Notes: generated from the sequence alone by a model not told the origin. 64,000 bases of DNA from an uncultured Mycoplasmatota bacterium (GCA_947570175.1 CANOTJ010000002.1:33346-97345), one strand, 5' to 3'. Shown: positions 10,004-58,865, counted from the first letter of the stretch. Program-made: numbers and translations.

Positions 10004-11357
10004 TATCTTTCACCTCCCTATCTTTTTGTTCTTCAAAATCTTTTACATTTTGCTCCATCTTCGGAGTTCTTTCTTCTATACCATCACATAAAACCACCTC
10101 CTCTCGTAACGGTGTAATTTCTTTATTTAAAAGGTCTATTTCATTTCTAACAGATTCCTTTTCACTTTGACTTTTGGCTTTCTTGTGCCTGTACCACAAC
10201 TTGCTTCTTTTATCTAATAAACTGTCTAATTCTTTTGTTTTTTGTGTCTTAAACGCAAAAAATTGCTCGTAAGTATCTAATTTATTACTTACGAGCAAAT
10301 CAGTTTGTTTTGATATTTTATCTAACTCTTTCAATTCTACACGAATCTCTGGAGATAATCTTTTATTAGGATATTCAGTAGGAAATACTTTCAGCAAATA
10401 GCAATAGTGTAAATATAAAGCATATAAGCCTTTGTGTTTTTGCTTCTTATATGGTGTGTAAGTCTTTGATCTTTTCTTATTGCCATATTCATCTATAAAA
10501 GGTATTCTAGGTGCTTGTTCTATTTCTATTCTCTCTTTTATTCTATCAATACTATAATCATACCCAAAGCTTCTTTCAATACGAATATGCTTTTTATAAG
10601 GCTCTCTTACTACACTTAATCTACTACCACGATAAATAAGGTCGTAGTCCATTGCTTTCATTAAACATTCAAAATCTCTAAATGAATAGGCTTGAGCAAT
10701 GGCTCGGTCTATATCTTCTTTAGTCGTTGTATAATAGTTATTTTTTTCAATATAGCCTTTATAGTAATTAGCATAATTGATTTTACTATTTCTACACGGC
10801 TTTTCTTCTAATACAGAAAGTCCATATTCTTCACATAGTGAATCCGATAGTTGTCTTAATCTAGCATAAGTTTCCCTTTTATCATAATATCTCTTACCAT
10901 CTTTAAATGACACAGAATTGATAACAAAGTGATTATGAATATGCTTTGTATTAAGATGGGTACTTACGATTACTTCAAAACGGTCGCCCCACATTTCTTG
11001 TGCCAACCTAACACCAATAGCGTGTGCTTGTTCTGGAGTAACTTCTCCCTCTGCAAAAGACTGGAATGCGTGAAAACCTAAAATACCACCAGTCTTATTA
11101 TATTGCTGTTTAGTAATAAGCATTTCTTCGTATGCACTTTCAACAGAACAATTAAGAGAAGAAACATAGTATTGATTTTCAGTTTTAAAATCTGCTTCAG
11201 CATACTCTATAACATTATGAAGTTCTTTGTATGCTTCTTTTCCATAGTCACTATTAAGAGTTTTTTCTATATTAGTAGTATAGTCTATAACGTGGTCTAG
11301 TCTTTTTTCAATTTTCCATATACCTGTCGTAGCCATTGCTCTCTCCTTTCTTTCCAA
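9987..11357 (-). CDS. Conjugative relaxase, MobP-type (relaxase/mobilisation nuclease domain)
   Basis: 456 aa; histidine triad 'VSTHLNTKHIHNHFVINSVS' (HxDxxxHxHxH-like 3H motif) in the N-terminal domain; C-terminal K/E-rich coiled-coil. Confidence 0.75.
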   Translation of the reverse strand: MERKERAMATTGIWKIEKRLDHVIDYTTNIEKTLNSDYGKEAYKELHNVIEYAEADFKTENQYYVSSLNCSVESAYEEMLITKQQYNKTGGILGFHAFQSFAEGEVTPEQAHAIGVRLAQEMWGDRFEVIVSTHLNTKHIHNHFVINSVSFKDGKRYYDKRETYARLRQLSDSLCEEYGLSVLEEKPCRNSKINYANYYKGYIEKNNYYTTTKEDIDRAIAQAYSFRDFECLMKAMDYDLIYRGSRLSVVREPYKKHIRIERSFGYDYSIDRIKERIEIEQAPRIPFIDEYGNKKRSKTYTPYKKQKHKGLYALYLHYCYLLKVFPTEYPNKRLSPEIRVELKELDKISKQTDLLVSNKLDTYEQFFAFKTQKTKELDSLLDKRSKLWYRHKKAKSQSEKESVRNEIDLLNKEITPLREEVVLCDGIEERTPKMEQNVKDFEEQKDREVKDNEHIR

Positions 11358-39909: not shown

Positions 39910-40039
39910 AAAATACCTCCCTCTTTCCTTGATATAATGACACAAAATAACAAAATACAAGATTTACTTTATTTTAAAGGAATTATTGAAGATTACAATA
40001 TAAAATTAGAATCTATAAAAAATGAAAAAGTAGATGATG

Positions 40040-40205
40040 AAAACTTAAAAATAGTTGTATCAGTAATAAAATAAATAAAATTAGTTGTGTTCTTAAAAAT
40101 TATTGATATAAAGATTTATAAATAGTAAAAATAGTTAAATTAGTTTTGAGAGAGTTGCAAAAGGTATGTGAAAAATCATATCTTTTTAATTTTGTATAAA
40201 TTTAA
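40040..40205 (+). promoter_or_regulatory. Candidate MobV oriT/promoter region
   Basis: Direct repeats AAAATAGTTGTATCAG / AAATTAGTTGTGTTCTT / AAAATAGTTAAATTAGTT; 'TAGTTGTGTTCTTA' resembles the pMV158-type nick core (GTGTG/TT). Confidence 0.3.
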
Positions 40206-40223
40206 AGATTGGAGGAATGATAT

Positions 40224-41510
40224 ATGAATTTAAATTATGCAATATTTAGAAGTGAACCTATTTATACAATTAACGATTTGGCACAAATAGGATCACATAA
40301 CAAACGTGAAAAACAGGCTTATAATTCTAATCCTGATATTAAGGTAGAATTAAGTAAAAATAATATAGAGTTAAAACCCTTAACAGAAAAATATGTTAAG
40401 GGTTTTAAAATACTTGTAAAAGATTATGAAAAGGAACATAACGAAAGAATGAAAACAGAGCGAGATGATAGAAAAAGAACTTTTAATCAAATGTTAGATA
40501 AATCTAAAAATGTTATTGCAGATGAACTATTATTTACTGCCACAAATAAATTTTTTAAAAATATGACAGAAAAAGATATACTTGACTGGGCTAATACTTG
40601 TATGGATTTTGTTTATGAGGATTTAGGTTATACTAAAGAACAAGTTTTACATAGTGTCATCCATTTAGATGAGGCAACACCACATATTCATTGTGTAGTT
40701 GTACCACTTGTTAAAAAGTTTGATAAAAGAACAAATACAGAAAGATATACTATTTCTAAAAAACAATATATTAGAGATAAAATACATTTATCTGAATTAC
40801 AAGATAAATACCATAAAAGATTAACTGACAAAGGTTATGATTTAGAAAGAGGTATTAAAGGTAGTGATAGAAAACATATTAAAATCAAAGATTACAAAAA
40901 GATAAATAGAAAATTAGAACAGAACTTAAATACTAGAAATGATAGACTTGATAAAATAATGAATGAATTAGATAAACGAATGGAAACTACTAAAACAATT
41001 CCATTTGATAAAAAACACATTGTAGTAGAAAAAGATACTTTTGATATTATGCATAAAGCTATAAATGAATCTAAAAAAGTTATGGAATTACAGCCTAAAA
41101 TAAATGAAATATTTAATGAGATAAATAACTATGCTGATAGTTATAATTCTTTAGAAAAGGATAATCAAAAATATCAAAGAGAAATTAAATCATTAAAAAC
41201 TAAAAATAGTAATCTATTACAAGAAAATAATAAGTTAAGAGCTTATATTGATACTATTTTAGAGGTTATTAAGAAGTTTTTTAGAAAACTATTACAAATT
41301 GATAATGAACCTACAAAAGAAGCCACTACAACTGAAATAAAAGACTATTATGATAATCAAGATTTTAATTCTAACGATATTTACGAAATAGCTGAAAATA
41401 CTACAAAAGAAGATGAGTTATTTGATTATGCTGATATTCCTAGTTATTTGAAGACTAGCAAGAAATCTTATAAAGATAATGACAAAGATGATTTTGAAAT
41501 AGGTTTATAA
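40224..41510 (+). CDS. MobV-family relaxase (Mob/Pre plasmid recombination enzyme)
   Basis: 'HLDEATPHIHCVVVP' HxDE...PHxH motif; 428 aa with C-terminal coiled-coil. Confidence 0.8.
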   Translation: MNLNYAIFRSEPIYTINDLAQIGSHNKREKQAYNSNPDIKVELSKNNIELKPLTEKYVKGFKILVKDYEKEHNERMKTERDDRKRTFNQMLDKSKNVIADELLFTATNKFFKNMTEKDILDWANTCMDFVYEDLGYTKEQVLHSVIHLDEATPHIHCVVVPLVKKFDKRTNTERYTISKKQYIRDKIHLSELQDKYHKRLTDKGYDLERGIKGSDRKHIKIKDYKKINRKLEQNLNTRNDRLDKIMNELDKRMETTKTIPFDKKHIVVEKDTFDIMHKAINESKKVMELQPKINEIFNEINNYADSYNSLEKDNQKYQREIKSLKTKNSNLLQENNKLRAYIDTILEVIKKFFRKLLQIDNEPTKEATTTEIKDYYDNQDFNSNDIYEIAENTTKEDELFDYADIPSYLKTSKKSYKDNDKDDFEIGL

Positions 41511-41579
41511 ATCAAAATAAATGGTTTTGCAAAAATGGCTAAAATATGGTATAATAAATACACAAGGAGGAGTTATATT

Positions 41580-41987
41580 ATGCCAAAAGATAATGTTACT
41601 ATTGCTGAAGTTTTAGAAAACATTCAAAAAAACATTCAAGTAAACCATATTGACTTGCAAACTTGGGAAAGATATTTTCTGTTTTATTATCAAGCAAGCA
41701 ATACAATGGAACTTGGTTTAGAAAATTTAATAAAATTAAATGGGATTTTGTCAGATGCCACAGTAACAGATATTAAAACAACAAAAGATGAAATTAGATT
41801 TAGATTAGAAGGAGATTTATTAAAAAAAGATTTGTCAAGATTACATTCAGCTTTAAATTATATTCGTAATGCATTTGATGACAATGGTTTTTTAAAGCCA
41901 GAATGGGCAATGTCTGAATCAGAAAAGAAAAAAATGATGTTTAACAATGACCCTGAAATAATAGAAAAAAGTTCACTAAAAAGATAA
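41580..41987 (+). CDS. Hypothetical protein (135 aa from ATG 41580)
   Basis: AAGGAGGAG RBS ahead of ATG 41580; follows mobV. Confidence 0.5.
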   Translation: MPKDNVTIAEVLENIQKNIQVNHIDLQTWERYFLFYYQASNTMELGLENLIKLNGILSDATVTDIKTTKDEIRFRLEGDLLKKDLSRLHSALNYIRNAFDDNGFLKPEWAMSESEKKKMMFNNDPEIIEKSSLKR

Positions 41988-41992
41988 AAATA

Positions 41993-42045
41993 AAACAGAA
42001 ATTCAAAAGAAACTTTGTAACTTATGAATTTCTGTTTTTAAAAAC
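41993..42045 (+). terminator. Rho-independent terminator
   Basis: AAAACAGAAATTC ... GAATTTCTGTTTT stem followed by a T-run. Confidence 0.6.
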
Positions 42046-42133
42046 TATAATTCCATTATAGTAACCCACTACTAAGTCGGTAAACCAACTTAGGTGGGCA
42101 AAGGGATAAATACCCCTTTTGAAACCCCATTAA

Positions 42134-42180
42134 GCAACATATTACAAAGTTTCACAATGTAATATTGTTGCCTTTTTATT
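42134..42180 (+). terminator. Hairpin plus T-tract, terminator-like
   Basis: GCAACATATTACA ... TGTAATATTGTTGC then CTTTTTATT. Confidence 0.45.
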
Positions 42181-42202
42181 ACACTATCGTTTCATAAAAA
42201 GA

Positions 42203-42262
42203 AATAACCTTAATGCTAAAGTCTAACGACTAAAGCAAAAAGGTTATTTTTTTCTTTTGATA
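42203..42262. terminator. Possible bidirectional terminator downstream of the XRE gene
   Basis: AATAACCTT ... AAGGTTATT stem flanked by A-run and T-run; long loop lowers confidence. Confidence 0.35.
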
Positions 42263-42340
42263 AATCAAAAGTATGAATAAATAAAATTACTTTTCCCACT
42301 TTCACTAAAAATAAATTTTTAGCAAAACGTGTTCGTAATT

Positions 42341-42949
42341 TTATTTTTCTTCATCTATAAAATCTCCTGTAAGAGTATTTAATTTTGTTGTAGATTTTAT
42401 TTTTGTTTTAGGAAATACCCCTCTATCAAATTTAGGATATTTTGATTTATCTAATTTTTCTAGATTAGGTCTAATCATAGGTATTAACTCTTTTAGTCTA
42501 TCTAATATCTCATCATTTGAAATTTCTTTATTTTCTATTTTTACTAGTTCTAATTTATCAATTAAATCAGCGATTCCACCTTTAATAGCGAAGTCAGTTT
42601 TTCTTCTTGTTTCAAATTCTTCTAAAACATCAAAATAAAATTGTTCGTAAGATTTAATTTGTTCTTGATAATCAGTAGTAGATCTTTTACTTAATAAATC
42701 TTTTCCCAAATTTATATCAACATCATCATATCCAGCAAGTTTCATAAGTTTAACTAAACTTAAACCTAAAGTTTCAGCAATACCTTTTAAATATAAAATG
42801 TTTGGTTTTAATCTTTTACCTGCCTCAATCCTTGATACTTCGGCACAATCCATATTTGATTTACGAGCAAGTTCTCTTTGTGATATTCCTAGTTTTTCTC
42901 TTGCTTCACTTATAGTTTTACCAAGTTCAGTAGTGTTTTTCTTTAACAT
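42341..42949 (-). CDS. XRE-family HTH regulator with C-terminal domain (about 202 aa)
   Basis: HTH 'ISQRELARKSNMDCAEVSRIEAG'; start chosen at ATG 42949. Confidence 0.65.
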   Translation of the reverse strand: MLKKNTTELGKTISEAREKLGISQRELARKSNMDCAEVSRIEAGKRLKPNILYLKGIAETLGLSLVKLMKLAGYDDVDINLGKDLLSKRSTTDYQEQIKSYEQFYFDVLEEFETRRKTDFAIKGGIADLIDKLELVKIENKEISNDEILDRLKELIPMIRPNLEKLDKSKYPKFDRGVFPKTKIKSTTKLNTLTGDFIDEEK

Positions 42950-43100
42950 TTTAATACACCTCTTTTTCGTTTCTTGAATTAAGTATAGCACATATTGCTG
43001 TAATAATCAACAACATTGTAATCATTCTGTTGACAAACTCATTTTATAATGTTATAGTAGTATCAGTTTTGATGTAAAAATCATCAACAAGAAAGGAGGA

Positions 43101-43358
43101 ATGCTTATAAGGAAGTTTCAAATACCACAGAAGATTTGGAAAGATAAAAGAATTCCAAAAGAAACAAAATATATTTACTCTTATATTTATACAAAAGGAT
43201 TCGATAGAATAATCACAGATATAAATATAGGAGAAATACAACAGACCATTAAAATAAAAAATAAGGGTTTGAAAAAGAGTTTAGATATATTAGAACAATT
43301 AAAATATCTAGCATATCAAGAGTATGCAACAGGAATGTACACCATAACACTTAACTAA
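43101..43358 (+). CDS. Small basic protein (85 aa), probable DNA-binding/excisionase-like partner of the recombinase
   Basis: Strong RBS AAAGGAGGAAtg at 43090-43100; plus-strand orientation with the recombinase. Confidence 0.45.
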   Translation: MLIRKFQIPQKIWKDKRIPKETKYIYSYIYTKGFDRIITDINIGEIQQTIKIKNKGLKKSLDILEQLKYLAYQEYATGMYTITLN

Positions 43359-43705
43359 AAAGTTTATAGGAACGTAGTTAAGTAAGGTACAGTAAGATGA
43401 AAGGCTTATGTTAGTACCTATTCTAGTAATAGAATGAATCTAGTTTGAAGTAAGACATAATTCAAAGAACAAATAAAATTTAAAAAATAGTATGTGTTAT
43501 TTCAAACAATATAATCTTAGGGGCGAAGATTTAAAATAATGCCTCTAGGATAACTCTGTCTAATTTTAGAAGTATGACTTGTAGATAATACAGTTTTTTT
43601 TGTTGTTTCTTAAAACTTGTTTGTTTAAATATTTAAAATAATGGAAAGGAATGAGATTAGCTATGAAAAATTATGATTAAAAATTAAACGAAAGGGGGAA
43701 TTTTA

Positions 43706-43858
43706 TTGGCTGATGAAAAGAAATTAACACAAATAGAAATTGATAATCTAATTGATGAAACAATTAACCTATCAATTTTATCAAAATTATTAGAATTAAA
43801 TTTAATTACAAATAAAGAGTTTTATACACTTAAAGAAAAAATAAAGAATTTCTATTAA
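43706..43858 (+). CDS. Possible 50-aa protein (TTG start)
   Basis: AAAGGGGG RBS 7 nt before TTG; below the ORF-track cutoff. Confidence 0.25.
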   Translation: MADEKKLTQIEIDNLIDETINLSILSKLLELNLITNKEFYTLKEKIKNFY

Positions 43859-43949
43859 AGGGATACAGATTCCATAAAAAATATTATATAATGGTTATAA
43901 GAACACGACTGCAGTTCGTAAAAAACTAAAAATGAAAGTGAGGTATTAA

Positions 43950-45707
43950 ATGGCACAAGTTGAGATTATTGCAGCTAATCTCAAAACTAATATTAAAAAT
44001 TCCATTAAAAAAGTATTAAAAAAAGTGTGTGCTTATGCAAGAGTAAGTACAGATAGTGAGGAACAACAGACAAGTTATAATTCACAAATTAAACATTATT
44101 CTAATATGATTAAATCAAATCCTGATTGGAAGTTTGTAGGAATATATGCTGATGAGGGTATTAGTGGTACTCAAGTTAAACATAGAACAGAATTTCAAAG
44201 AATGATAGATGATGCTTTAAATGGTAAAATAGATATTATTATAGCAAAATCAATATCTAGGTTTGCAAGAAATACTGTTGATACTTTAAATACAGTTAGG
44301 AAATTAAGAGAACATAATGTTGATGTTTATTTTGAAAAAGAAAATATCCATACTTTAGAATTAGATAGTGAGATGTTTTTAACTCTTTATAGTGCATTTG
44401 CTCAAGCTGAAAGTGAATCAACTTCACAAAATGTAAAAATGGGTTTAAAAGCCAAAATGAAACGTGGTGAATATGTTGGAAGACCTAATCCTTATGGATA
44501 TGATTGGAATAAAGATACACAAGAATTATCTATAAATGAAAAAGAGGCAGAAGTTGTTAGAATGATATTTAATTGGTATGCTGATGGTATAGGTTGTAAA
44601 ACAATATCAATGATATTAAATAAACAAGGTATTATTTCTCCTGGTGGTAAAAAATGGTCGCAACAATATGTAAGGACAATGTTAGATCAAGAAAAATATA
44701 TTGGAGATTTAATGGGGCAAAAGGTTTATACAATTAGTCCTCTTTCTCATAAAAAAATTAAAAACTATGGAGAAAAAGAAAGATATTATTCAAAAGATAG
44801 ACACGAGGCAATTATTTCAAGAGAACTTTGGGATAAGGTACACGATATTTTGAAAAAAAGAAATGGTAAACCTATGTTAAATGGCAAAAAGCATCAAGAA
44901 AGATATAGTATGCGATATGCTTTTAGTAGTAAAATTGTTTGTGGCTTTTGTGGAGCAAATTATTCTAGAAGATCAAGTGGCAAAAATAAAAATGGAAAAC
45001 AAAATATTTATTGGGCTTGTATGGGAAGAATAGATAAAAACGAATGTGAAGAATCTATCTATATAAAAGAAGAAATACTTGAAAATTTATTTATTCAAAT
45101 TTATAACTCCATAATAGATAATAAACATAAAACAAAAGATAAATTATTAGGAGCAATAAAATCTGTTATAGAAGAAAACCATGCAAAGACTAAACTAGAT
45201 AAATTAGAACTACAAGAAAATAATATTCGTACAAAAATATCTAATTTAATTGATTTAAAACTAGAAAACATTATTGATAAAGAGGCATACATTGAAAAAG
45301 AAAAAGAACTACAAAATCAATTAAACAATATCTTAGAACAAAAAGAAGAATATAAAAATCTAGAAAATGAAAATCACAAAATAGCAAAACAATTAAAAGA
45401 TATAGAAAAAGTTTTAGATACCCCATTAAAACTAAAAGAATTTGAACGAGAAGTCTTTGATAATATTATAGAAAGAATAATCATTGGTGAAATAGAAGAA
45501 GATGGTACACACAATAATAAGATAATTAGATTTATCTTAAAAACAGGAGCTGAATTTAAAAAAAACTTAAGTGAAAATACAGCTAAATTTAATGGAAATA
45601 ATAATGTGTCATTAGAGCAAAGAAAGACCACTATTAATATGGATATAATATTTCTTTTTAAACATAACAAAATTACTTCATTTGAGATGGAATCTAATAT
45701 AATTTGA
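43950..45707 (+). CDS. Large serine recombinase (resolvase catalytic domain + recombinase domain + zinc ribbon + coiled-coil)
   Basis: Catalytic Ser region 'YARVSTDSEEQQTSYNSQ'; 'GISGT', 'IIAKSISRFARN'; Cys-rich 'CGFCGANY...WACMGR'; 585 aa. Confidence 0.85.
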   Translation: MAQVEIIAANLKTNIKNSIKKVLKKVCAYARVSTDSEEQQTSYNSQIKHYSNMIKSNPDWKFVGIYADEGISGTQVKHRTEFQRMIDDALNGKIDIIIAKSISRFARNTVDTLNTVRKLREHNVDVYFEKENIHTLELDSEMFLTLYSAFAQAESESTSQNVKMGLKAKMKRGEYVGRPNPYGYDWNKDTQELSINEKEAEVVRMIFNWYADGIGCKTISMILNKQGIISPGGKKWSQQYVRTMLDQEKYIGDLMGQKVYTISPLSHKKIKNYGEKERYYSKDRHEAIISRELWDKVHDILKKRNGKPMLNGKKHQERYSMRYAFSSKIVCGFCGANYSRRSSGKNKNGKQNIYWACMGRIDKNECEESIYIKEEILENLFIQIYNSIIDNKHKTKDKLLGAIKSVIEENHAKTKLDKLELQENNIRTKISNLIDLKLENIIDKEAYIEKEKELQNQLNNILEQKEEYKNLENENHKIAKQLKDIEKVLDTPLKLKEFEREVFDNIIERIIIGEIEEDGTHNNKIIRFILKTGAEFKKNLSENTAKFNGNNNVSLEQRKTTINMDIIFLFKHNKITSFEMESNII

Positions 45708-49113: not shown

Positions 49114-52100
49114 TTATCTTTTAGATCTCAAATATGCCAAAATACTAGACATTCCTACCATACAAAATAGTACAATAACAACTTCAAAAGCATTGTATTC
49201 TCCATCTAGCCAATAATCTACCACATTTTTCATTTCTTTGCTATTCTTCTTAGAATCTACATCTAATTTATGAGCCTTTTTTGTTTGTTTTACATTATTT
49301 GTTTTCCTTTTTCTTTGTTTTTCTTTTTTAACAACATTAGAATTTTTTTGTAAAGTACTCATTTTATTATTTTCTTTAGTAGACTCTTTTGATCTATCTT
49401 TTTTAGTTATAGATACCGTATGCTTTCTAGTATTCTCTTTTTTACTCTGATTTTTATTCATATGATCCTCTGATGAATTATCTTTTTTAGAATCATCCTT
49501 AATCACAATCTGTATCTTATGCATGGATACATTTTTATCTGAATCCATAACACTATAAGTAACAGGGTAATTTCCAGATTTATAAACATTTAAATTTGTA
49601 TGAATCTTTGTATTACTTTTGCTAATTTTCAATTTTCCATCTTCATTATCATTAACTTCTATTAAAGAATATAAATCGATATTAGAACCTATAGAATACT
49701 CGTAAGTCTCACTAGAAGAAATAATATATGGTAAACCACCTCGTTTTATTCTATAAACAAATTCAAAGTATGGCTTTTGGTCTTCTTCTCTTAAACTGTT
49801 ATAAGCGGCAAGTACATCCGATTTTACTTTAAAATTTTTAATCCTATTATTTAATTCTTCATCTATTACTTGATTTTTATAGGCTTCAATGATTTCAATC
49901 AATTTTGCTTTCAAATTTTGATAAGATAATTCATCTACTTCTGCTTCACTCATACCATCAACTCTTAATCCATTAGACATGACAATATATTGTGTTTTCT
50001 TATTTGGCGCACGTAATGTTGTAACTTCCTTACCAGTCAAAGTACTATAAAATTTTACTTTGCTTGCATATCTATCTGGATAATAAACCTCAACGACATA
50101 TCCTGGTTTAATTTCTACATCATGAGCACCTTGATTATAATCGAAATATGTACCATTTACAGAATCATCAGAGATAAGTTTTCCATCTTGATCATAAATT
50201 CTTACATACTCACCACCATGCATAGAGGCACCATTTGGATATTCAATTCTAACCTTTGTATAGGCATCTTTAAATGTTAAACGACAACCGATTGTATTAA
50301 AATAATAGGATAAAATATCCATTCGTAAATAATTATCATATTGAACATCATCTATTATCTTATAAGAATACGTATAACTATTTTTGACCCCTTCTTTTAT
50401 ATAAACAGGAAAATGATCTTGATTATATTCGTTATTAATTGGCATTTGGATATAATAATTTCCTACTGGTAGATCTTCTATCTCCACATTTGGAGATGTA
50501 ATTTCTATTTGTTTTATAATATTGTTTCCTGATTTTATTCGAAGAATTTTTCCTTTGATATCAGAAAAATTCTTAATTTCAATATGAATTGACAGATTTC
50601 CAGTAACATTATATTTTTCTAAAATATCATTCGTAACTAATGAATACTTTCTATTAATATTTTCTCCTTCTAATATTTGTTCTAATGACGAATCATTTAC
50701 AGTATCTTTTAAAATACTTAACATAGGATAATCCTTTGAATATATTTCATCTTTTACATTATTGGCAATATCAAGTCCCCATGCTTCCATATATGGAATA
50801 ATATTTACATGATATATATCAGCAAGAGCTAAAGCGTAAATATTTTGATTAGAATTAGCATCCACTAACAAAGTATGATTATTTAAGTGTTCTCGATACC
50901 AACTAAATATCTTTGAATAAGTGGTTCCCCCTTCAAATGTATCAAATAAATTTACAATCATATATAATCTAGTACCAACTTCATTAGAATTCCAAGTACC
51001 ACCATTTTCTCTATTAGCATTTCGATTATTTTCAGTTGTACTTAAATTTCCTAACCAATCTCCTGGATAGAAATAAATATCCTTATCAACTTGAATATAA
51101 TGACCAATAATATTATTCCCGGTTTCTCCTAATCCCATAGTTCCTTTACCAAGATTTCCTTGATATCCATGAGCTAATTCATGTAATCCTCCCCAGTTCA
51201 TTTGAAAAAATGAAGAGATAGAAGAGTTATTGATACCAACATGGTGTCCAGCGTAATAAGCTGCCCCTGCTCCATGCGCATTCGCCTTCACTAAGTATTT
51301 GGTCCTAACATTCTGATCAGTTAATTTTTCAGGATTTAAATCTAATCCAACATATTCATCCATTTTGTCTACCACTTTTTGATAATATTCCAAAAATTGA
51401 TCAAATGTTTTAAAACTATTTCCATATAAATTATGGTTTACCATTTTGTCAATATCCGCAAACGGGGTTATAATAGTTAACACTTCGTTTTCTACTACCC
51501 CATATGTATTTTTAGAGGTCTTCCATTTTTGTCTAAACTCTCCTTCATCATCTTTGTAATGATAGTAATTTAATGGTTGTATAGTCCCGTCATATTCCAA
51601 TTCTATTTTAAAAGTTTTATGAATATTAATATCGTTTCTTTTCAATATAGTTGAAGTTAAAACTGGTACAGAATCATAATTTACCCCATTTTTGGAATTT
51701 GAAAGCGTTATCCATTCTCCATTATTTGGTATATTCATAGAGCCTTCTTTCCATGAATCATTAGCCATAAAACCAACACTAATTTGATTATCTGCTGATA
51801 ATATGCGCGCTTTTATATTTTGTCCTGCTGCCAAATAAACACCAAGGATTTGACGGTCTCCACTATTGCATCTAGAGAACCCCGCTAAATTCATATTCCA
51901 AGTAGATGGAATGGTATAAAGTGTTCTCTCTACATTAATTTTAGATTCTAAATTAGGTTCTATTTCATTTGTTGTATCCTGAATTTCTTCTTTTTTCTCA
52001 TTTAAAGAATTAGCTACATCTAGAGTTTGAGGATTTATAACATCTTGTTCTTCTACTATTTGATCATTAGAAATATTCGAAGTTTCTTCAACAGAATCCT

Positions 52101-52722
52101 CCACCTCTTCAATTGTCAAGTCATTTTCTTTTAGATCATTTACATCATTAAGTTGCGTTGTTCCCTCTGGTATTTCATCTATTTCTTTATTTGACTCCTT
52201 TTGTATATTATTCTCCTGATTAGAAGATAATAAAGAATTATCTAAATTATCTACTTTTTCTCGTTTTTCTAAATTTTCTACTTCTGTTGACTGTTTTTGT
52301 TCTACTATTTTTTGTTCTTCTGGTCCTTTTACTATAACAGGAACAACAATAGAAGATTTATTTCCATGCGAATCTGTAACCTTATAAGTAATGTTATAAG
52401 TTCCAATCTTATTTACATTTACCTCTCCAGTATGAGTAATATAAGGAGTTAAATCTCCATCTTCAAAGTCTTTTGCGAAAATTCTAAATCTTGCATCCTT
52501 AACATCAAATTCTTTTACACTCCCTATGGTAAATGTTATTTTGGTAGCCCCATAAAAAACTGGCGCATTTTTAGTATTCTAATAACTATTCTCGTTTTTT
52601 CTTATGTTATCTTCTGGTTGAGCATTTACTTTAAAACTATAAAATAAGATAAAACAGCTTAAAGTGGCAATTGATATCAATAAAAAAAACTCGAGTCTTT
52701 TAATAAACGTAGATTTCTCCAT
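49114..52722 (-). pseudogene. M60-like/enhancin-type zinc metallopeptidase gene with signal peptide, Ig-like domain and C-terminal TM anchor, interrupted by an in-frame TAG at 52579-52581
   Basis: ATG 52722 -> MEKSTFIKRLEFFLLISIATLSCFILFYSFKVNAQPEDNIRKNENSY*; the same frame continues NTKNAPVFYGATKITF...VTDSHGNKSS... into the 1001-aa ORF (49114..52119) carrying 'GGLHELAHGYQ'. Confidence 0.6.
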
Positions 52723-54425: not shown

Positions 54426-55247
54426 TTACTTCGTTTTCACTTTACATTCTAATGAAATACTATCTAAATCATTTGGAACATATAAATTTCCAGAAAAATA
54501 AGGCTTATTTTCTTGTAAATATCGGTCTTCTCTATGATTAAGATCTTCATCTTTTATATGGTATAAAATCAAATTTTTTACATTCAATTTAGTAGCCATT
54601 TCACAAACATCTTTTGCAGTTATATGACCTTTTTCATAAGGTCTTTTTACATCTTTTTCACTATCCAAACAAAAGGCTTCATGGATTAAAAAATCAGCAT
54701 TTTCTACTAAATCATAATTCTTCTCATCTAAGGGTTCATCTCCATTACATACTAAAATTTGTCCACTAAGTGTTTTTAAATAAAATCCATATTGTACTTC
54801 TTTTTTAGCATAAACATCATAAAAAATAAAATTTTCTCCTAATATAGAAACTTGTTCTCTATTTTCAACAGAAATAAGTTGAATTTTATCATCCAAATAA
54901 TCACTTTGTCTTTTATTTAAAATCAATTTGGCAATTGTGCGAATTGCATCTGTTGTGATACTTGATGCATAAATGTGAACATCCTCTTTATATTCGCCAG
55001 ACATCATTGCAAGCGCTATCTTTCGAATCAACCATATAATCCCTATAATATGATCAATATGATTATGTGTAACAAAGATATTATGGATAGAGCTAGGAGG
55101 AATTTCTGCCTTTCTTAACTGCTCTAAAATATGGATTCCCCCCCCGCCATCAACTAGCATATATTCTTGATTTTTTTTAAGAGCAAAACATGCGTTATAA
55201 AATTGAATGGAACTAGCAGAACCTGTTCCTAGCATCATTAATTCCAT
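54426..55247 (-). CDS. MBL-fold metallo-hydrolase, RNase Z-like
   Basis: N-terminus 'MELMMLGTGSASS' and 'FVTHNHIDHIIG' (HxHxDH). Confidence 0.6.
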   Translation of the reverse strand: MELMMLGTGSASSIQFYNACFALKKNQEYMLVDGGGGIHILEQLRKAEIPPSSIHNIFVTHNHIDHIIGIIWLIRKIALAMMSGEYKEDVHIYASSITTDAIRTIAKLILNKRQSDYLDDKIQLISVENREQVSILGENFIFYDVYAKKEVQYGFYLKTLSGQILVCNGDEPLDEKNYDLVENADFLIHEAFCLDSEKDVKRPYEKGHITAKDVCEMATKLNVKNLILYHIKDEDLNHREDRYLQENKPYFSGNLYVPNDLDSISLECKVKTK

Positions 55248-55314
55248 TGAAAATCATCTCCTCTATAAATTTTTTCTATGTAGAAGTTACTTCTTTTATT
55301 TTTTATTTTTAAAT
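55158..55314. repeat. 157-bp direct repeat copy 1 (155/157 identical to 57191..57347)
   Basis: Manual alignment; covers the 5' end and upstream region of the MBL gene 54426..55247. Confidence 0.85.
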
Positions 55315-56118
55315 ATTTATTTCTAATCCAACTCCCACTTCCATTATATCTAATTTTTTTGCCATTTCTATTTTTGCTTTTAGTGAAACGCAGTGACAAG
55401 GATATAATAATTTGATATTATTTTCTTCTAAATATTTTATAGTTTTTTCTAGTCTCTCATTTATATCAAACAAATGAAAACCACCGATAACTCCATATAT
55501 TCTATCATCGTTGCAAACTTTTTTAGCATATTCTAAAATATTACAAATACCGCTATGGGAGCATCCAGTTATAACAAATAAACCATTATTGCTTTTATAA
55601 ACGATTGCCGAATCATCGTTTATTGTATCATCGATTTTTTCTCCATTAACAATACTTTTTCCAATTGAATATCTTTGTTCAAAATCATTCAAAGTAGGAA
55701 TCTCCCCTAAATATGTAATATGTTCACTAATTTGAACTGGTTCTTTAGATAAATTTAGTCGGCAAACTTTAAAAAGTTCTTCCTTAGATAAAGGGCTCCC
55801 AATATATAATCCTTTTGAATCTTCTTTATAATCAAAACAATCCGGATGGGCAATTAATTGGGTATTTCTTTTATTCTCAAAAAAATATTTTAAACCGCCT
55901 GTGTGATCATCATGCCCATGAGATATTACTAATTTATTTACACTATTTAAGTCAATACTCATTTTACCTGCATTTTCTAAAAAAGTATTGGAATACCCTG
56001 TATCAAATAATATTTTATCATCACCATCTTCAATATAATAAGAGACTCCTGGTTCTCCCAAATAATATTCATCAATAAAGGTATTATTATCTTCCAACAC
56101 TTTTAATTTCATTTTCAA
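55309..56118 (-). CDS. MBL-fold metallo-hydrolase
   Basis: 'VISHGHDDHTGGL' HxHxDH motif. Confidence 0.65.
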   Translation of the reverse strand: MKMKLKVLEDNNTFIDEYYLGEPGVSYYIEDGDDKILFDTGYSNTFLENAGKMSIDLNSVNKLVISHGHDDHTGGLKYFFENKRNTQLIAHPDCFDYKEDSKGLYIGSPLSKEELFKVCRLNLSKEPVQISEHITYLGEIPTLNDFEQRYSIGKSIVNGEKIDDTINDDSAIVYKSNNGLFVITGCSHSGICNILEYAKKVCNDDRIYGVIGGFHLFDINERLEKTIKYLEENNIKLLYPCHCVSLKAKIEMAKKLDIMEVGVGLEINI

Positions 56119-56134
56119 TTTCCTTTCATATTTA

Positions 56135-56806
56135 TTAACCCTCTAACTCATGTTTTAATTCATCAGAACAATAAAAATTCATATACTCAATTCTTTCTTT
56201 TTCACTTAAATCACAACTATTATTTTTAAACATATTTTTTAACTTTTTATAATCACCATTAATGCTTTCATGACTGGCAACAATCATATTCATTTTAGAT
56301 ACATTTGTTAAATCCAAGTTTATCCCATTTATTTTAGCAAGTGACTCTATAAATATTCTTTGACTTCTACCATTACCTTCACGAAAAGGGTGTAAAGCAT
56401 TAATATCTGCAAATAATTCCACTAATTTATCTAATGTTGTTTCATTATCATAATCTACAAAGTATTTTTCTTTTTTTAATTTATTAAATACATCAGTACC
56501 AAATGATTCTATATGTTCTGTTAAGCAAAATAAATCTTGTTTAGCAATATTACAATTTCTTATATCTCCTGCCCATCTATAAATATCTTGAAACAAATAT
56601 TTATGAATATCTTTTAAATACTTAAAATCAAAATTTCCTTTTAATGGTTTTTCATTTAATTCATAGGTCCTTAAAGATACAAGTTCTCTTTCAGCATTAA
56701 ATAAATCTTCATCATTTGTTATATTCAATTTATTTATTAAAATGTCAGTATCTTTATAACAGTAATCAGCGGTTTTTTCATAAGTATATTTGTATTTATT
56801 ATCCAT
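56135..56806 (-). CDS. Fic/Doc-family protein (AMPylator; class I toxin-like)
   Basis: FIC motif 'HPFREGNGRSQR'. Confidence 0.8.
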   Translation of the reverse strand: MDNKYKYTYEKTADYCYKDTDILINKLNITNDEDLFNAERELVSLRTYELNEKPLKGNFDFKYLKDIHKYLFQDIYRWAGDIRNCNIAKQDLFCLTEHIESFGTDVFNKLKKEKYFVDYDNETTLDKLVELFADINALHPFREGNGRSQRIFIESLAKINGINLDLTNVSKMNMIVASHESINGDYKKLKNMFKNNSCDLSEKERIEYMNFYCSDELKHELEG

Positions 56807-57002
56807 AGATTCTCCTATATTTTTCTAAAACTTTTTTTCTTTCTATTTCAGTTGTTGACTTTCCAATTATACAATTATAAAGCTTTTGTTTTATTTCTTT
56901 AGTTAAAGGCATTCCTTCTTGTGCCATTGCACCATCAATTTTTTTTATTTTTTCTTGTATTTCTTTTTCAGTCTGATTTTTACTATTATTCATTAATATC
57001 AC
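56799..57002 (-). CDS. Small VbhA-like Fic antitoxin candidate
   Basis: 67 aa immediately upstream, 8-nt overlap with fic; contains 'KSTTEIER' resembling the (S/T)xxxE(G/N) inhibitory motif. Confidence 0.5.
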   Translation of the reverse strand: MILMNNSKNQTEKEIQEKIKKIDGAMAQEGMPLTKEIKQKLYNCIIGKSTTEIERKKVLEKYRRIYG

Positions 57003-57139
57003 TTACTTTCCTAAAGTTTCTAACATATTCATTATACTATAAAAGTCCTTTTTAATCATCAATTTATAGAGATAAATTAAGGAAAATGCTTTCGCTTGGG
57101 TACCTTGGGTACTGTAGTTATTATCAAACTATATAGAAC

Positions 57140-57250
57140 ACTATTTACTACAACACATTACTTATGCTTTATTTTCCCACCATCAATCAACATATATTCT
57201 TGATTTTTTTTAAGAGTAGAACATGCGTTATAAAATTGAATGGAACTAGC
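57140..57250 (-). pseudogene. Truncated 5' fragment of an MBL/RNase Z-like gene (MELMMLGTGSASSIQFYNACSTLKKNQEYMLIDGGKIKHK*)
   Basis: Lies inside repeat copy 2; homologous to the N-terminus of 54426..55247. Confidence 0.6.
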
Positions 57251-57347
57251 AGAACCTGTTCCTAGCATCATTAATTCCATTGAAAATCATCTCCTCTATA
57301 AATTTTTTCTATGTAGAAGTTACTTCTTTTATTTTTTGCTTTTGTAC
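57191..57347. repeat. 157-bp direct repeat copy 2
   Basis: Differs from copy 1 only at 'gagcaaaaca' versus 'gagtagaaca'. Confidence 0.85.
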
Positions 57348-58865
57348 TGCCTGCATTTGTTTTGAATCTTCTATTTTTTCTTCTATCTCTATATTTTGAA
57401 GTACTAATCTTTCTTTCATCTCTTGTATTTGTTTTAAAAGATTGCTGACTGTTTCATTATAATACATAGCATATCTTTCTAATAATTCTTGTTCTATTTC
57501 ATTAACTTCTAGTAAAGAATTCACGTTAATTTCTTTCGCTTTCCATAACATATCCTGCTTTTTTTCTACTTCTTCAATAATTTTTTTGTAGTTTTCTATT
57601 TGTATTTTAGTAGAGTCCATCTGAATAATTTTTTTCATCTTTTTTATTTGAATATTGATTAAGATGGCAGATGTGAAACAACCAAAAAATTTATTTTTGA
57701 ATAATTTTACTGGAACAAGAGAAATAGTAAGACGAATAATGGTTGTAATCATTAATTTTATCTTAGTTAATATTTTTTGTTGTTTTGGTATCATATTTAA
57801 ATATTCCATTTCTCTTTGAAAACGTTGAATTTCATCATTTTGCTTTAAAAGATAGCGATCGACTAAAGAAAGACAGTTAGTAGCATCCATTTTTATTTCC
57901 TTATTTATTTGTTCTTCTTTTTTCTCTTCATCTTTTTTTTCTTTTTCACTTTCTTGCTTTTGGGATGGCATTACTGTTTTTTCTTTGTTCTTTTCTACTA
58001 CTTTAAATAAAGATTTTTTTAAAGGTGAACTTTCTATTCCTTGTTTTATAGCAACTGAATTTACACCATTTTTGATTAGAGAATTCTTCTTTGAAATAGT
58101 ATTCATAATATCTTCTTGGGACTCTAAATTAGAATAATTATCATCATTTTTAGGCGTAAAATTAGAATTAGAATTCTTTCCTTTTGTAGTAGTGTGCAAT
58201 GGACTATCTTCCTTTTTAATGGATAAAACACTATCTTTTTTAAAATAAATATCTTCTACGATTTTCGTTGTTGCAGATCCAACTGCATGTAATGATAATC
58301 CCCCAAGCATTTTCACGCCTGTTTTTATTTTCTTTTTTAAGGAAGAAGATTTTTTCTGTTTTTCTTCTGATTTTTCCTGTTTTTCTTTCCTAACTACTCC
58401 TTTTTTTTCTTTTAAAATCTCTTTTGTTTCTTCTTTTTGGTAATCTTGTTTCTCCATTTCTGTTTGCTTTTGGTTTATTTTTTGATCAATTATTTGAATC
58501 ATTTTTTTAGTTTCTTTCTTTTTTTTAGGATCAAGAATAGGAATTTGGGAAACTTCTTTTTTAATATTTATTACTCTTTTTTTGATAGTAGATAGAGCTT
58601 CCTTTTCCACTACTGAATCTAATTGTTTAGAAACTTGAATCAATTCTTTTTCGATTTTTTTTATTTTCTGTTCTTTTTTCTTTTTAGATTCTAATAAGCC
58701 TAAAAAAAGTCCTAAAATTGTAAGTGAAATAATTTTTAATCGACTATATTTTTGAATCTCTTTTTTCTTTTTCTCCTCTAACTCTTCTTGTTTTTTCTTT
58801 TTACGCTTTCTTAGAATATTTAGAAATGTTTTAATTTTATTAATAATAGATCCTTTTTCCCTCAT
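57309..58865 (-). CDS. K/E-rich coiled-coil membrane protein (518 aa)
   Basis: Low-complexity KKKKE repeats; TM helices 'IISLTILGLFLGLL' and near the C-terminus. Confidence 0.45.
   Translation of the reverse strand: MREKGSIINKIKTFLNILRKRKKKKQEELEEKKKKEIQKYSRLKIISLTILGLFLGLLESKKKKEQKIKKIEKELIQVSKQLDSVVEKEALSTIKKRVINIKKEVSQIPILDPKKKKETKKMIQIIDQKINQKQTEMEKQDYQKEETKEILKEKKGVVRKEKQEKSEEKQKKSSSLKKKIKTGVKMLGGLSLHAVGSATTKIVEDIYFKKDSVLSIKKEDSPLHTTTKGKNSNSNFTPKNDDNYSNLESQEDIMNTISKKNSLIKNGVNSVAIKQGIESSPLKKSLFKVVEKNKEKTVMPSQKQESEKEKKDEEKKEEQINKEIKMDATNCLSLVDRYLLKQNDEIQRFQREMEYLNMIPKQQKILTKIKLMITTIIRLTISLVPVKLFKNKFFGCFTSAILINIQIKKMKKIIQMDSTKIQIENYKKIIEEVEKKQDMLWKAKEINVNSLLEVNEIEQELLERYAMYYNETVSNLLKQIQEMKERLVLQNIEIEEKIEDSKQMQAVQKQKIKEVTST

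Follow-up and report, generated by a model that had tools for sequence, protein, structure and literature searches.

Class I FicTA toxin-antitoxin (TA) pairs, exemplified by VbhT/VbhA of Bartonella schoenbuchensis and EcFicT/EcFicA (Fic/YhfG) of E. coli, consist of a single-domain Fic protein of about 220 aa and of a small upstream open reading frame (ORF) overlapping its gene. The toxin inhibits growth through AMPylation of gyrase and topo IV, an effect that the antitoxin neutralises. The inhibition motif published for FicA is [S/T]xxxE[G/N], with an essential Glu (PMC5033356). TA systems are often carried by integrative mobilizable elements (IMEs) of the serine-recombinase type, which disrupt their target genes, accrete in tandem and decay to cis-mobilizable elements (CIMEs); the known members have very short direct repeats and keep both att sites (PMC5704250). 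Other elements, such as skin in sigK, SPbeta in spsM and gin in gerE, interrupt a coding sequence at a precise codon, and their precise excision can rebuild the gene (PMC4191935; PMC5595907; see also 'regulated gene integrity', PMC7192596). Finally, Campbell insertion-duplication and homology-facilitated illegitimate recombination (PMC3240628) are laboratory-defined routes leading to an insert that has a truncated gene copy on its upstream side and an intact one on its downstream side, the direct repeats corresponding to the shared fragment. The present work concerns a natural structure of comparable layout, found in 64,000 nucleotides of DNA from an uncultured Mycoplasmatota bacterium (GCA_947570175.1 CANOTJ010000002.1:33346-97345; this whole stretch is hereafter called the window). 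There, a FicTA-like pair followed by MBL269, a gene for a metallo-β-lactamase (MBL)-fold hydrolase, stands between a 5′ stub and an intact copy of a second MBL-fold gene, MBL273. We propose, with a probability of roughly 60%, that this block (55305-57175) is the decayed left end of an IME from a family common in low-GC gut Bacilli, that it entered MBL273 at a secondary site and that the gene was healed by an illegitimate duplication.

FicTA pairs, gene-splitting serine-recombinase IMEs, decay to CIMEs, accretion and maintenance by TA systems are known; what differs here is the lost attR, the secondary site and the long gene-restoring duplications, occurring in several lineages. A complete element found at another locus, L053, resembles Firmicutes serine-recombinase IMEs by its Mob_Pre relaxase, terminal large serine recombinase, imperfect inverted arms, gene-splitting site-specific insertion and TA pair, and arrays of gene stubs and leaders at loci L014-16 resemble accretion (PMC5704250), whereas the window would hold only a decayed piece. 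Like the gene-intervening elements, L053 interrupts a coding sequence at a precise codon, and its precise excision could rebuild the gene; in the window, the gene is rebuilt permanently, by duplication. Unlike known IMEs and CIMEs, the remnants described below are bounded by 150-185-bp duplications of the 5′ region of the host gene, which restore that gene, and the window remnant would lie at a secondary site in a non-amidase gene. Since the block has no recombinase or relaxase of its own, no attL with attR and no inverted arms, it is neither a complete IME nor a CIME. As in homology-facilitated illegitimate recombination (PMC3240628), one of its junctions lies in homology and the other in microhomology. 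Neither Amidase_3 genes as a target nor this scar was found described in a non-exhaustive search of the literature.

Structure and strain variation of the interrupted locus

All genes of the region are on the minus strand. In the order of transcription are found a 518-aa gene, repeat copy 2, a 40-codon stub, an ORF of 64/67 aa, the Fic gene, MBL269, repeat copy 1, MBL273 and an HD-domain gene (Table 1). A repeat search within 52.0-60.5 kb revealed one long direct repeat, whose copies, spaced by 2033 bp, are identical at 160 of 168 positions (95%). Base-by-base comparison delimits a near-perfect core (145/147, with mismatches at 55184 and 55186), homology ending at 55304/57337. Below the core, a weaker stretch extends down to 55143/57176 (11/15 identical), where the differences are mostly synonymous (MLVDGG vs MLIDGG); it represents true homology, because the full-length gene of L004, a 1.3%-diverged strain, has the stub-like allele there. 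A preliminary description of this DNA had placed the repeat at 55158-55314 and 57191-57347, with 155 of 157 identical positions. The repeat is real, but 150 of these 157 positions match and the right edge had been drawn about 10 bp too far.

Each copy is composed of the 3′ end of the 518-aa gene (9 codons), 28 nt of spacer, which in copy 2 carries the ribosome-binding site (RBS), and codons 1-36 of MBL273. Copy 1 starts 4 nt past the stop codon of MBL269 and runs into the intact MBL273. Because copy 1 has the 3′ end of the 518-aa gene, the 518-aa gene and MBL273 were once adjacent and the block between them is an insertion, as had been claimed at first; the uninterrupted junction from the 518-aa gene to MBL273 is found in strain L002. 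The stub ORF is made of 35-36 homologous codons, four new codons and a stop, so that it counts 40 codons instead of the 38 initially reported. A non-coding stretch of 173 bases separates the stub region from the 64/67-aa ORF. The 1.87 kb between the copies hold a leader, the FicA-like antitoxin gene, a class I FicT gene and the second MBL gene, a content already recognized in the preliminary description and borne out by the ORF list and by profile and structure-database matches. The right junction reads TTTAAAAAT/AAAAAATAAAAG (slashes mark junctions in all sequences given here), with an AAAAAT microhomology.

The ORF list and Pfam showed no recombinase and no relaxase in 55305-57175. No inverted repeats were found at the ends of the block and no transposase inside it, and the duplication (162-168 bp here, 150-185 bp elsewhere) differs from the short fixed-length target duplication of a transposon or insertion sequence. 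The window contains no tRNA gene and the region 52.0-60.6 kb no Rfam family. The GC content of the block is that of the background, a promoter and terminator scan gave nothing above shuffle expectation, and comparison of the block with phages returned no close match, with plasmids only distant single-gene matches.

The repeat is neither a chance resemblance nor an assembly artefact. The same structure occurs in L001 (ERZ14867584), 99.97% identical to the window over 7.9 kb, and in L004 (ERZ14651003), 98.7% identical and having its own copy-specific differences; L005 (ERZ14864016) also contains the block. SPAdes contigs of these three independent assemblies cross both copies, with copy-specific single-nucleotide polymorphisms (SNPs) and unique sequence on all four sides, and agree with the window on the order. 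The edges of the repeat are where numerous k=31 Logan contigs end, which would be expected of samples having both copies.

Comparison of strains gives the signature of copies that exchange with each other and shows them to be substrates for homologous recombination. Over 7870 bp, the window and L001 differ at two positions only, located 4 nt ahead of the ATG in each copy and showing one and the same C/T change (chance about 4e-5). In L004, a G/A site co-varies in the two copies, which differ from each other at about 8 other sites. In L002, a single repeat joins the 518-aa gene to MBL273, which makes it an empty site. Both its background and that of L005 have 100% identity with the window over 1775 bp downstream. 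L005 has lost 135 bp of copy 1 (55169-55303) with an AATA microhomology at the junction, and its MBL gene restarts at Met28. Non-reciprocal exchange keeps the copies alike, and a reciprocal crossover would delete precisely the 2033-bp unit, giving the structure of L002. The excisability by homologous recombination that had been predicted for the block therefore agrees with the exact single-repeat structure of L002 and with the paired change in L001. That the repeats are young and the event recent, as had also been proposed, does not follow: the copies diverge unevenly, at 1/119 positions proximally against 5/43 distally (Fisher p=0.005), and they are more different in L004. The distal stub alleles (TTGATT..GGT) are common to L041, a locus of a sister species, and partly to the full-length gene of L004. 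Near-identity of the copies is at least partly due to homogenisation or to a mosaic origin.

The element family at amidase genes and the G8 run of MBL273

The unit formed by the leader, FicA and FicT (57152-56135) shares 84-88% DNA identity with the same unit in many unrelated contexts, and alignment of four contexts shows that homology of the FicA upstream regions reaches about 150 nt before the ORF. At FicTA loci beside Wadjet (L014-16) and beside a Mob/integrase island (L017/18), the 5′ stub of an amidase gene, ending in ..IDPGH, directly precedes the leader. A metagenome scan with the Fic query brought 66 more loci. Directly before the leader-FicTA unit stands an Amidase_3 5′ stub ending in GAT-SCN-GGN-CAC, with at least eight different amidase N-termini; the amidase attB is written ..GATGCGGGGCAC/GGTGGTAAA...

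At L053 (4560-12760), a complete element of about 8 kb splits a CwlD-like Amidase_3 gene at DAGH/GG. The stub and leader are followed by FicA, FicT, a gene resembling those of pPIWI-associated nucleases (PF18165), Mob_Pre, helix-turn-helix genes and, last, the gene of a large serine recombinase of 535 aa. About 100 nt beyond it, the amidase gene resumes, and the flanks rebuild ..LDAGH/GGKD... The two ends form an imperfect inverted repeat, in which ACCCAG stands 15-24 nt away from the junctions. This element may be a gene-intervening element in a cell-wall or spore-cortex amidase. In L014 (6600-14672), L015 and L016, FicTA and then Wadjet (JetABCD) are located between two amidase-stub-plus-leader units, the second one after JetD, and the sequence past the second stub differs among the three strains, which suggests a tandem array of elements accreted at one attachment site. 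From left to right, complete members of the family carry a conserved terminal arm and leader, FicA/FicT, a cargo that varies, and the genes of a Mob_Pre relaxase and of a large serine recombinase, and they would integrate site-specifically at the DxGH codons of Amidase_3 genes, splitting the gene.

In the window, the 23 nt between the stub and the leader (57153-57175) align with the terminal arm of L015-2 (p~0.005), and the junction between stub and block is best read as a degraded attL. The preliminary description had not recognized that the block is related to the left end of an IME family, nor that the stub can be read as an attL-like junction in a secondary attachment site; the recurrence of the scar, described below, had also escaped it.

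The interruption of MBL273 falls in a run of eight G. Intact MBL273 reads ..GAT GGC GGG GGG GGA, and the stub reads ..ATG TTG ATT GAT GGT GGG/AAAATAAAG, the break (57176/57175) occurring after the third G of the run. This G8 run is the only G/C homopolymer of at least 6 in the 64-kb window (0.04 expected). It encodes a DGGGG motif conserved in the MBL273 family, which a 68% identical homologue writes GGCGGTGGAGGA, without a G8 run. In L004, the run is a G7 (L004 9640-9666) and the resulting frameshift splits the gene into ORFs of 40 and 201 aa; this could reflect phase-variation-like slippage or an assembly error at low coverage (4x).

A parallel is provided by the sister-species locus L041/L042, which has the same gene order and 91% identical flanks. 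At the same bond of the G-run (GGG/../GGGGG), L041 carries a different insert of 1299 bp, GATGGCGGG/insert/GGGGGAATCC, with no duplication and no loss. This element (L041 7723-9021; also in L042) has perfect 20-bp terminal inverted repeats (AGAATATARCTTATACCCAA), with ACCCAA at the same distance from the junction as the ACCCAG of L053. It contains a 263-aa gene weakly similar to the endonuclease/exonuclease/phosphatase family (PF03372, E=0.018) and, having no recombinase but both inverted ends, looks like a CIME. The best reading of the G-run is that of a secondary attachment site at which elements of the ACCCAA/ACCCAG end-family have inserted twice. The use of pseudo-sites by large serine recombinases is established.

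Further comparisons were made with the L041 element. Its 20-nt inverted-end motif is absent from the window and from JGI metagenomes, and the single viral match of this motif, isolated and within a coding region, was taken as chance. The idea that an internal GGGAAAATAAA of this element gave rise to the stub junction GGG/AAAATAAA was ruled out, as 39% of shuffles score equally. An internal 58-bp stretch of the element resembles the region upstream of FicTA in L011 (E=6e-5).

Proposed healing of the target gene and alternative histories

At amidase targets, a scar is found whose architecture is that of the window: a stub, FicTA, a truncated cargo, the duplicated upstream region and 5′ end, and then the downstream gene. 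It is present in at least three other lineages, where the element is reduced to its FicTA end, with duplications of 150-185 bp. In L054, the repeat has 185 nt (99% identity, spacing 1405 bp) and the downstream gene is interrupted again after GH. Intact genes follow in the other cases: a 220-aa Amidase_3 in L055 (repeat of at least 55 nt, contig-limited, 100%; spacing 1422 bp), a LysM amidase in L116/L112 (at least 61 nt, contig-limited, 97-98%; 970-972 bp) and an amidase in L061 (110+41 nt, 85-89%; 1268 bp). The left junction is always at the same codons of the amidase targets, and the right junction, different each time, truncates the cargo, leaving a Walker-A ATPase remnant in L055 and falling at the MBL269 stop codon in the window. 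Because L053, which represents the parent type, has no substitute 5′ end, the duplicate was made from host sequence after integration.

Two observations on L054 may be added. The upstream repeat boundaries of the window and of L054 look similar (CAAAAGC..AAATAAAA, about 57-60 nt before the start codon). Besides, the restored amidase copy of L054 is interrupted right after ..LDAGH (11014-11060; GHGR, then a stop), perhaps through a second hit on the healed attachment site.

In the history that we favour, a member of the family would have integrated in the G8 run, within codons 35-37 of MBL273, creating the junction between stub and element. An illegitimate join would then have linked two positions, one in the element interior, 4 nt past the end of MBL269, and one in an intact target, 57 nt ahead of its start codon. 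That target would have been present either on the sister chromosome after excision or on incoming wild-type DNA, as in homology-facilitated illegitimate recombination (PMC3240628). Such a join to the upstream region of an intact target copy is the simplest account of the healing. It would delete the right part of the element, with the relaxase, the recombinase and attR, and leave the 162-168-bp duplication, by which MBL273 would become whole again with its own RBS. Because its left arm is eroded and its right end is missing, the remnant is no longer movable by site-specific recombination.

Several points weigh against this history. No recombinase acting on the MBL273 site was identified, no intermediate having FicTA and a recombinase in MBL273 was found, and the healing step was not seen. 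The serine recombinase encoded in the window (43950-45707) was ruled out as the responsible enzyme, since it is 27% identical to that of L053 and its element has different, unrelated ends (TAATGACACA arms, CC core). The left arm in the window is devoid of its first 7 nt or so and of the ACCCAA motif and shows an internal gap of 7 nt, so that a site-specific origin is argued from position and from the L041 parallel, not from an intact att site. The likeness between the G-run and the amidase attB is weak (about 20/48, counted by eye without a control) and was given no weight. The FicTA loci were gathered with a Fic query, and the impression that FicTA is what remains is therefore in part a matter of ascertainment. 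The co-variation of SNPs in both copies could come from collapse or homogenisation of repeats in short-read assemblies. Finally, between the window (55305-57190) and L004, FicTA and MBL269 are 0.35% diverged and the flanks 1.3% (p=0.0004), which suggests either that the block spread recently between strains by recombination in the flanks or that it is under stronger constraint. Because of this possible recent spread, the structure of L002 may equally be ancestral or an excision product.

An extension of the favoured history may be envisaged, though only tentatively: duplication of the 5′ end would be a regular outcome for this element family, a defined healing process restoring the gene, stripping the mobility genes and anchoring the FicTA end. 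One route would be an exchange between two chromatids, one still bearing the element and the other having just lost it by excision, and conserved G-rich coding motifs (DxGH, or DGGGG as G8) would serve as landing pads.

A Campbell-type integration, which appears rather doubtful, departs from the favoured history only in the origin of the duplication. From an element sitting in the G-run as a simple insertion, an aberrant excision of the lambda-gal kind would have released a 2033-bp circle made of a 168-bp host fragment and FicTA-MBL269. This circle would then have integrated by a RecA-dependent single crossover into a 518-aa/MBL273 locus that was intact, leaving the stub on the upstream side and the whole gene on the downstream side. 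The topology is exactly that of an integrated circle with a 5′ gene fragment, and the same circle is the predicted product of excision between the repeats. A crossover within the repeat that joined a diverged donor allele to the resident one would also fit the mosaic: the distal stub is L041/L004-like, and at the C/T site copy 2 has T in 8 assemblies, copy 1 and the empty allele having C. However, a non-replicating 2-kb circle must survive and, if it moves between cells, be transferred, and each of several amidase loci, with its own right junction, must have gone through the same two rare steps independently.

An insertion in one step, independent of any recombinase, is unlikely. Here, the G8 run would be a fragile or fork-stalling site, and a template switch or the repair of a staggered break would have copied FicTA-MBL269 from another place in the genome and resumed 168 bp behind, the likeness to IMEs being a coincidence. 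This would account for the position of both junctions in homopolymer or A-rich sequence, with microhomology at the right one, for the terminal arm that is not intact and for the background GC content of the block; the G7 of L004 shows in addition that the length of the run varies, as for a slippage-prone tract. Yet the order stub-leader-FicTA at at least eight amidase genes, always at the same codons, is left unexplained, as is the second, unrelated element with same-family inverted ends at the identical bond in L041. Moreover, no source locus with contiguous flanks was found.

Could the block be a cassette that is still mobile, the 147-168-bp repeats acting as functional attL and attR and a recombinase being supplied in trans? 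Presence or absence of the block in identical backgrounds (L002 vs the window), the existence of att-flanked CIMEs (PMC5704250) and a serine-recombinase IME 10 kb away would be in line with such cis-mobilization. It is nevertheless very improbable, the repeats being host coding and intergenic sequence that includes the 3′ end of another gene, the right junction having no element arm, the element of the nearby recombinase having unrelated ends and simple homologous recombination explaining the empty allele. As for a false repeat produced by a duplicated or mis-joined contig end, short-read metagenome assemblies can mishandle repeats of 120 bp and many Logan contigs break at the repeat edges, but the concordance of the assemblies, the different copy-specific differences of the diverged strain L004 and the recurrence of the scar at other genes of other organisms leave this explanation practically without chance.

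Gene products, neighbouring insertions and implications

Table 1. Features of the interrupted MBL273 locus, with positions in the window
Feature	Position	Strand	Basis or remark
518-aa K/E-rich gene	57309..58865	-	ORF list; last 9 codons (KIKEVTST and stop) inside copy 2, duplicated in copy 1
Repeat copy 2, native junction	57176..57343	-	core 57191-57337
40-codon stub of the MBL273 gene	57158..57280	-	MELMMLGTGSASSIQFYNACSTLKKNQEYMLIDGG + KIKHK and stop
Proposed element left end	57003..57175	-	eroded arm 57153-57175 + leader 57003-57152
FicA-like antitoxin candidate	56799..57002	-	67 aa from GTG or 64 aa from ATG
Class I Fic toxin (FicT/VbhT-like AMP-transferase by homology)	56135..56806	-	Pfam, NCBIfam, PDB and PADLOC matches
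MBL-fold hydrolase MBL269	55309..56118	-	269 aa from TTG or 267 aa from ATG at 56112
Repeat copy 1	55143..55310	-	core 55158-55304; provides RBS and first 36 codons of MBL273
Intact 273-aa MBL-fold gene MBL273, target gene	54426..55247	-	Pfam/NCBIfam profiles
G8 run (C8 on + strand) in MBL273	55138..55145	-	stub breakpoint and L041 insertion point

As in class I FicTA pairs, the Fic protein of the window has the canonical active-site motif HxFx(D/E)GNGRxxR (HPFREGNGRSQR, at residue 139), and a regular-expression check revealed no internal inhibitory motif. It matches Pfam Fic (6.7e-13), NCBIfam VbhT (7.2e-44) and E. coli Fic PRK10347 (3.4e-40), the latter two under the full-length equivalog cut-offs, as well as the PADLOC candidate-defence family PDC-S04 (1e-69). 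Its best relatives among structures are 8wt0, VbhT (3zc7, 3shg) and EcFicT (5jff), the matches to 8wt0, 3zc7 and 3shg being at about 1e-29. The FicA-like ORF overlaps the Fic start by 8 nt (56799-56806) and accompanies Fic in every context examined, an operonic arrangement with the antitoxin first. The sequence GAMAQEGMPLT, with its QEG, is invariant, AMAQEG being so in about 60 homologues. In contrast to class I antitoxins, the corresponding AxxxEG motif, which keeps E and G, has Ala in place of the Ser/Thr of the published motif (PMC5033356), and neither the single sequence nor a 6-sequence profile searched against the PDB showed similarity to VbhA or EcFicA; no family or PDB match was obtained. 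That the 64/67-aa ORF is an antitoxin is a well-founded inference rather than a demonstrated membership. With an intact FicT motif and a conserved FicA, the pair probably functions in TA or defence, as judged from homology. Addiction is a plausible reason for its presence inside the block, by analogy with the maintenance of IMEs and of integrative and conjugative elements (PMC5704250); the empty allele of L002 does not speak in favour of strict addiction.

The leader, which would include the promoter, is conserved before FicA in all contexts (TGTAGTAAAT..TCTAT..GGTAC..AAGCAT..TATAAT). In the window, it contains a tandem GTACCCAAG GTACCCAAG (57099-57120, minus strand) that overlaps a GGTACC palindrome, and L004 has one unit only. 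GGTAC/GATAC is conserved at this position in all leaders and may be an operator for autoregulation.

MBL269 (Pfam Lactamase_B 8.9e-15) fills the variable slot after FicT. Its family is otherwise stand-alone and widespread in related "Bacilli bacterium" metagenome-assembled genomes. Adjacency of Fic and MBL269 is also seen in L011-13, in a different context and with a truncated MBL269. A recent paralogy with MBL273 was ruled out (23% identity). MBL273 resembles RNase Z and cyclic-nucleotide phosphodiesterases, with scores under every curated cut-off (TIGR02651, RNase Z, 107 bits vs 293; anti-Pycsar Apyc1, 30 vs 50; a cyclic-nucleotide phosphodiesterase model, 53 vs 400); judged from these profiles, it is an MBL-fold hydrolase of the RNase Z/phosphodiesterase general type only. 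It is an accessory gene whose nearest relatives outside the species are 67-70% identical. The 518-aa gene has no match in Pfam, NCBIfam or PADLOC.

Two other insertions are seen in the window. Relative to the sister-species locus L041, 5.7 kb are inserted at 39925-45627 (plus strand). The insert carries the genes of a Mob_Pre relaxase (40224-41510; 69% identity with that of L053) and of the large serine recombinase (43950-45707) and, between them on the minus strand, an HTH_3 repressor-like gene (42341-42991). It ends in imperfect inverted repeats of 23 bp (TCTTTC.TTG.T.TAATGACACA), the core being CC, and the empty site of L041 reads ..ACCTCCC/ACTATTAAT... This insertion lies just ahead of a small gene and a Coat_F gene; it has the appearance of an intact IME and shows the signature that a clean insertion of such elements leaves in this lineage. 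On the minus strand, at 49114-52119, a 1001-aa gene with a zinc-protease-like motif (HELAHGYQG) is located between the HD gene and a flavin-reductase gene. It is not at that position in L004 or L041, synteny jumping from 52846 to 48971, which indicates another strain-specific insertion.

The data point to a family of elements with a relaxase and a serine recombinase that, in uncultured gut Bacilli, targets the catalytic-motif codons of cell-wall amidase genes and carries FicTA near its left end, followed by a variable cargo including defence genes such as Wadjet. Its att sites may be of interest for the mining of large serine recombinases as genome-engineering tools. The G8 run of MBL273 would be a secondary landing site, struck twice in sister species. 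The proposed history means that repair of a gene which a site-specific mobile element had interrupted need not cost the cargo of the element, and that the resulting scar, a stub, a TA pair and a long direct repeat of the 5′ end, would otherwise be annotated as a segmental duplication or an assembly error. If healing is systematic, it would be a route by which toxin-antitoxin and defence genes become fixed in chromosomes; a regular process of this kind, if true, would represent a previously undescribed way of domesticating such cargo.

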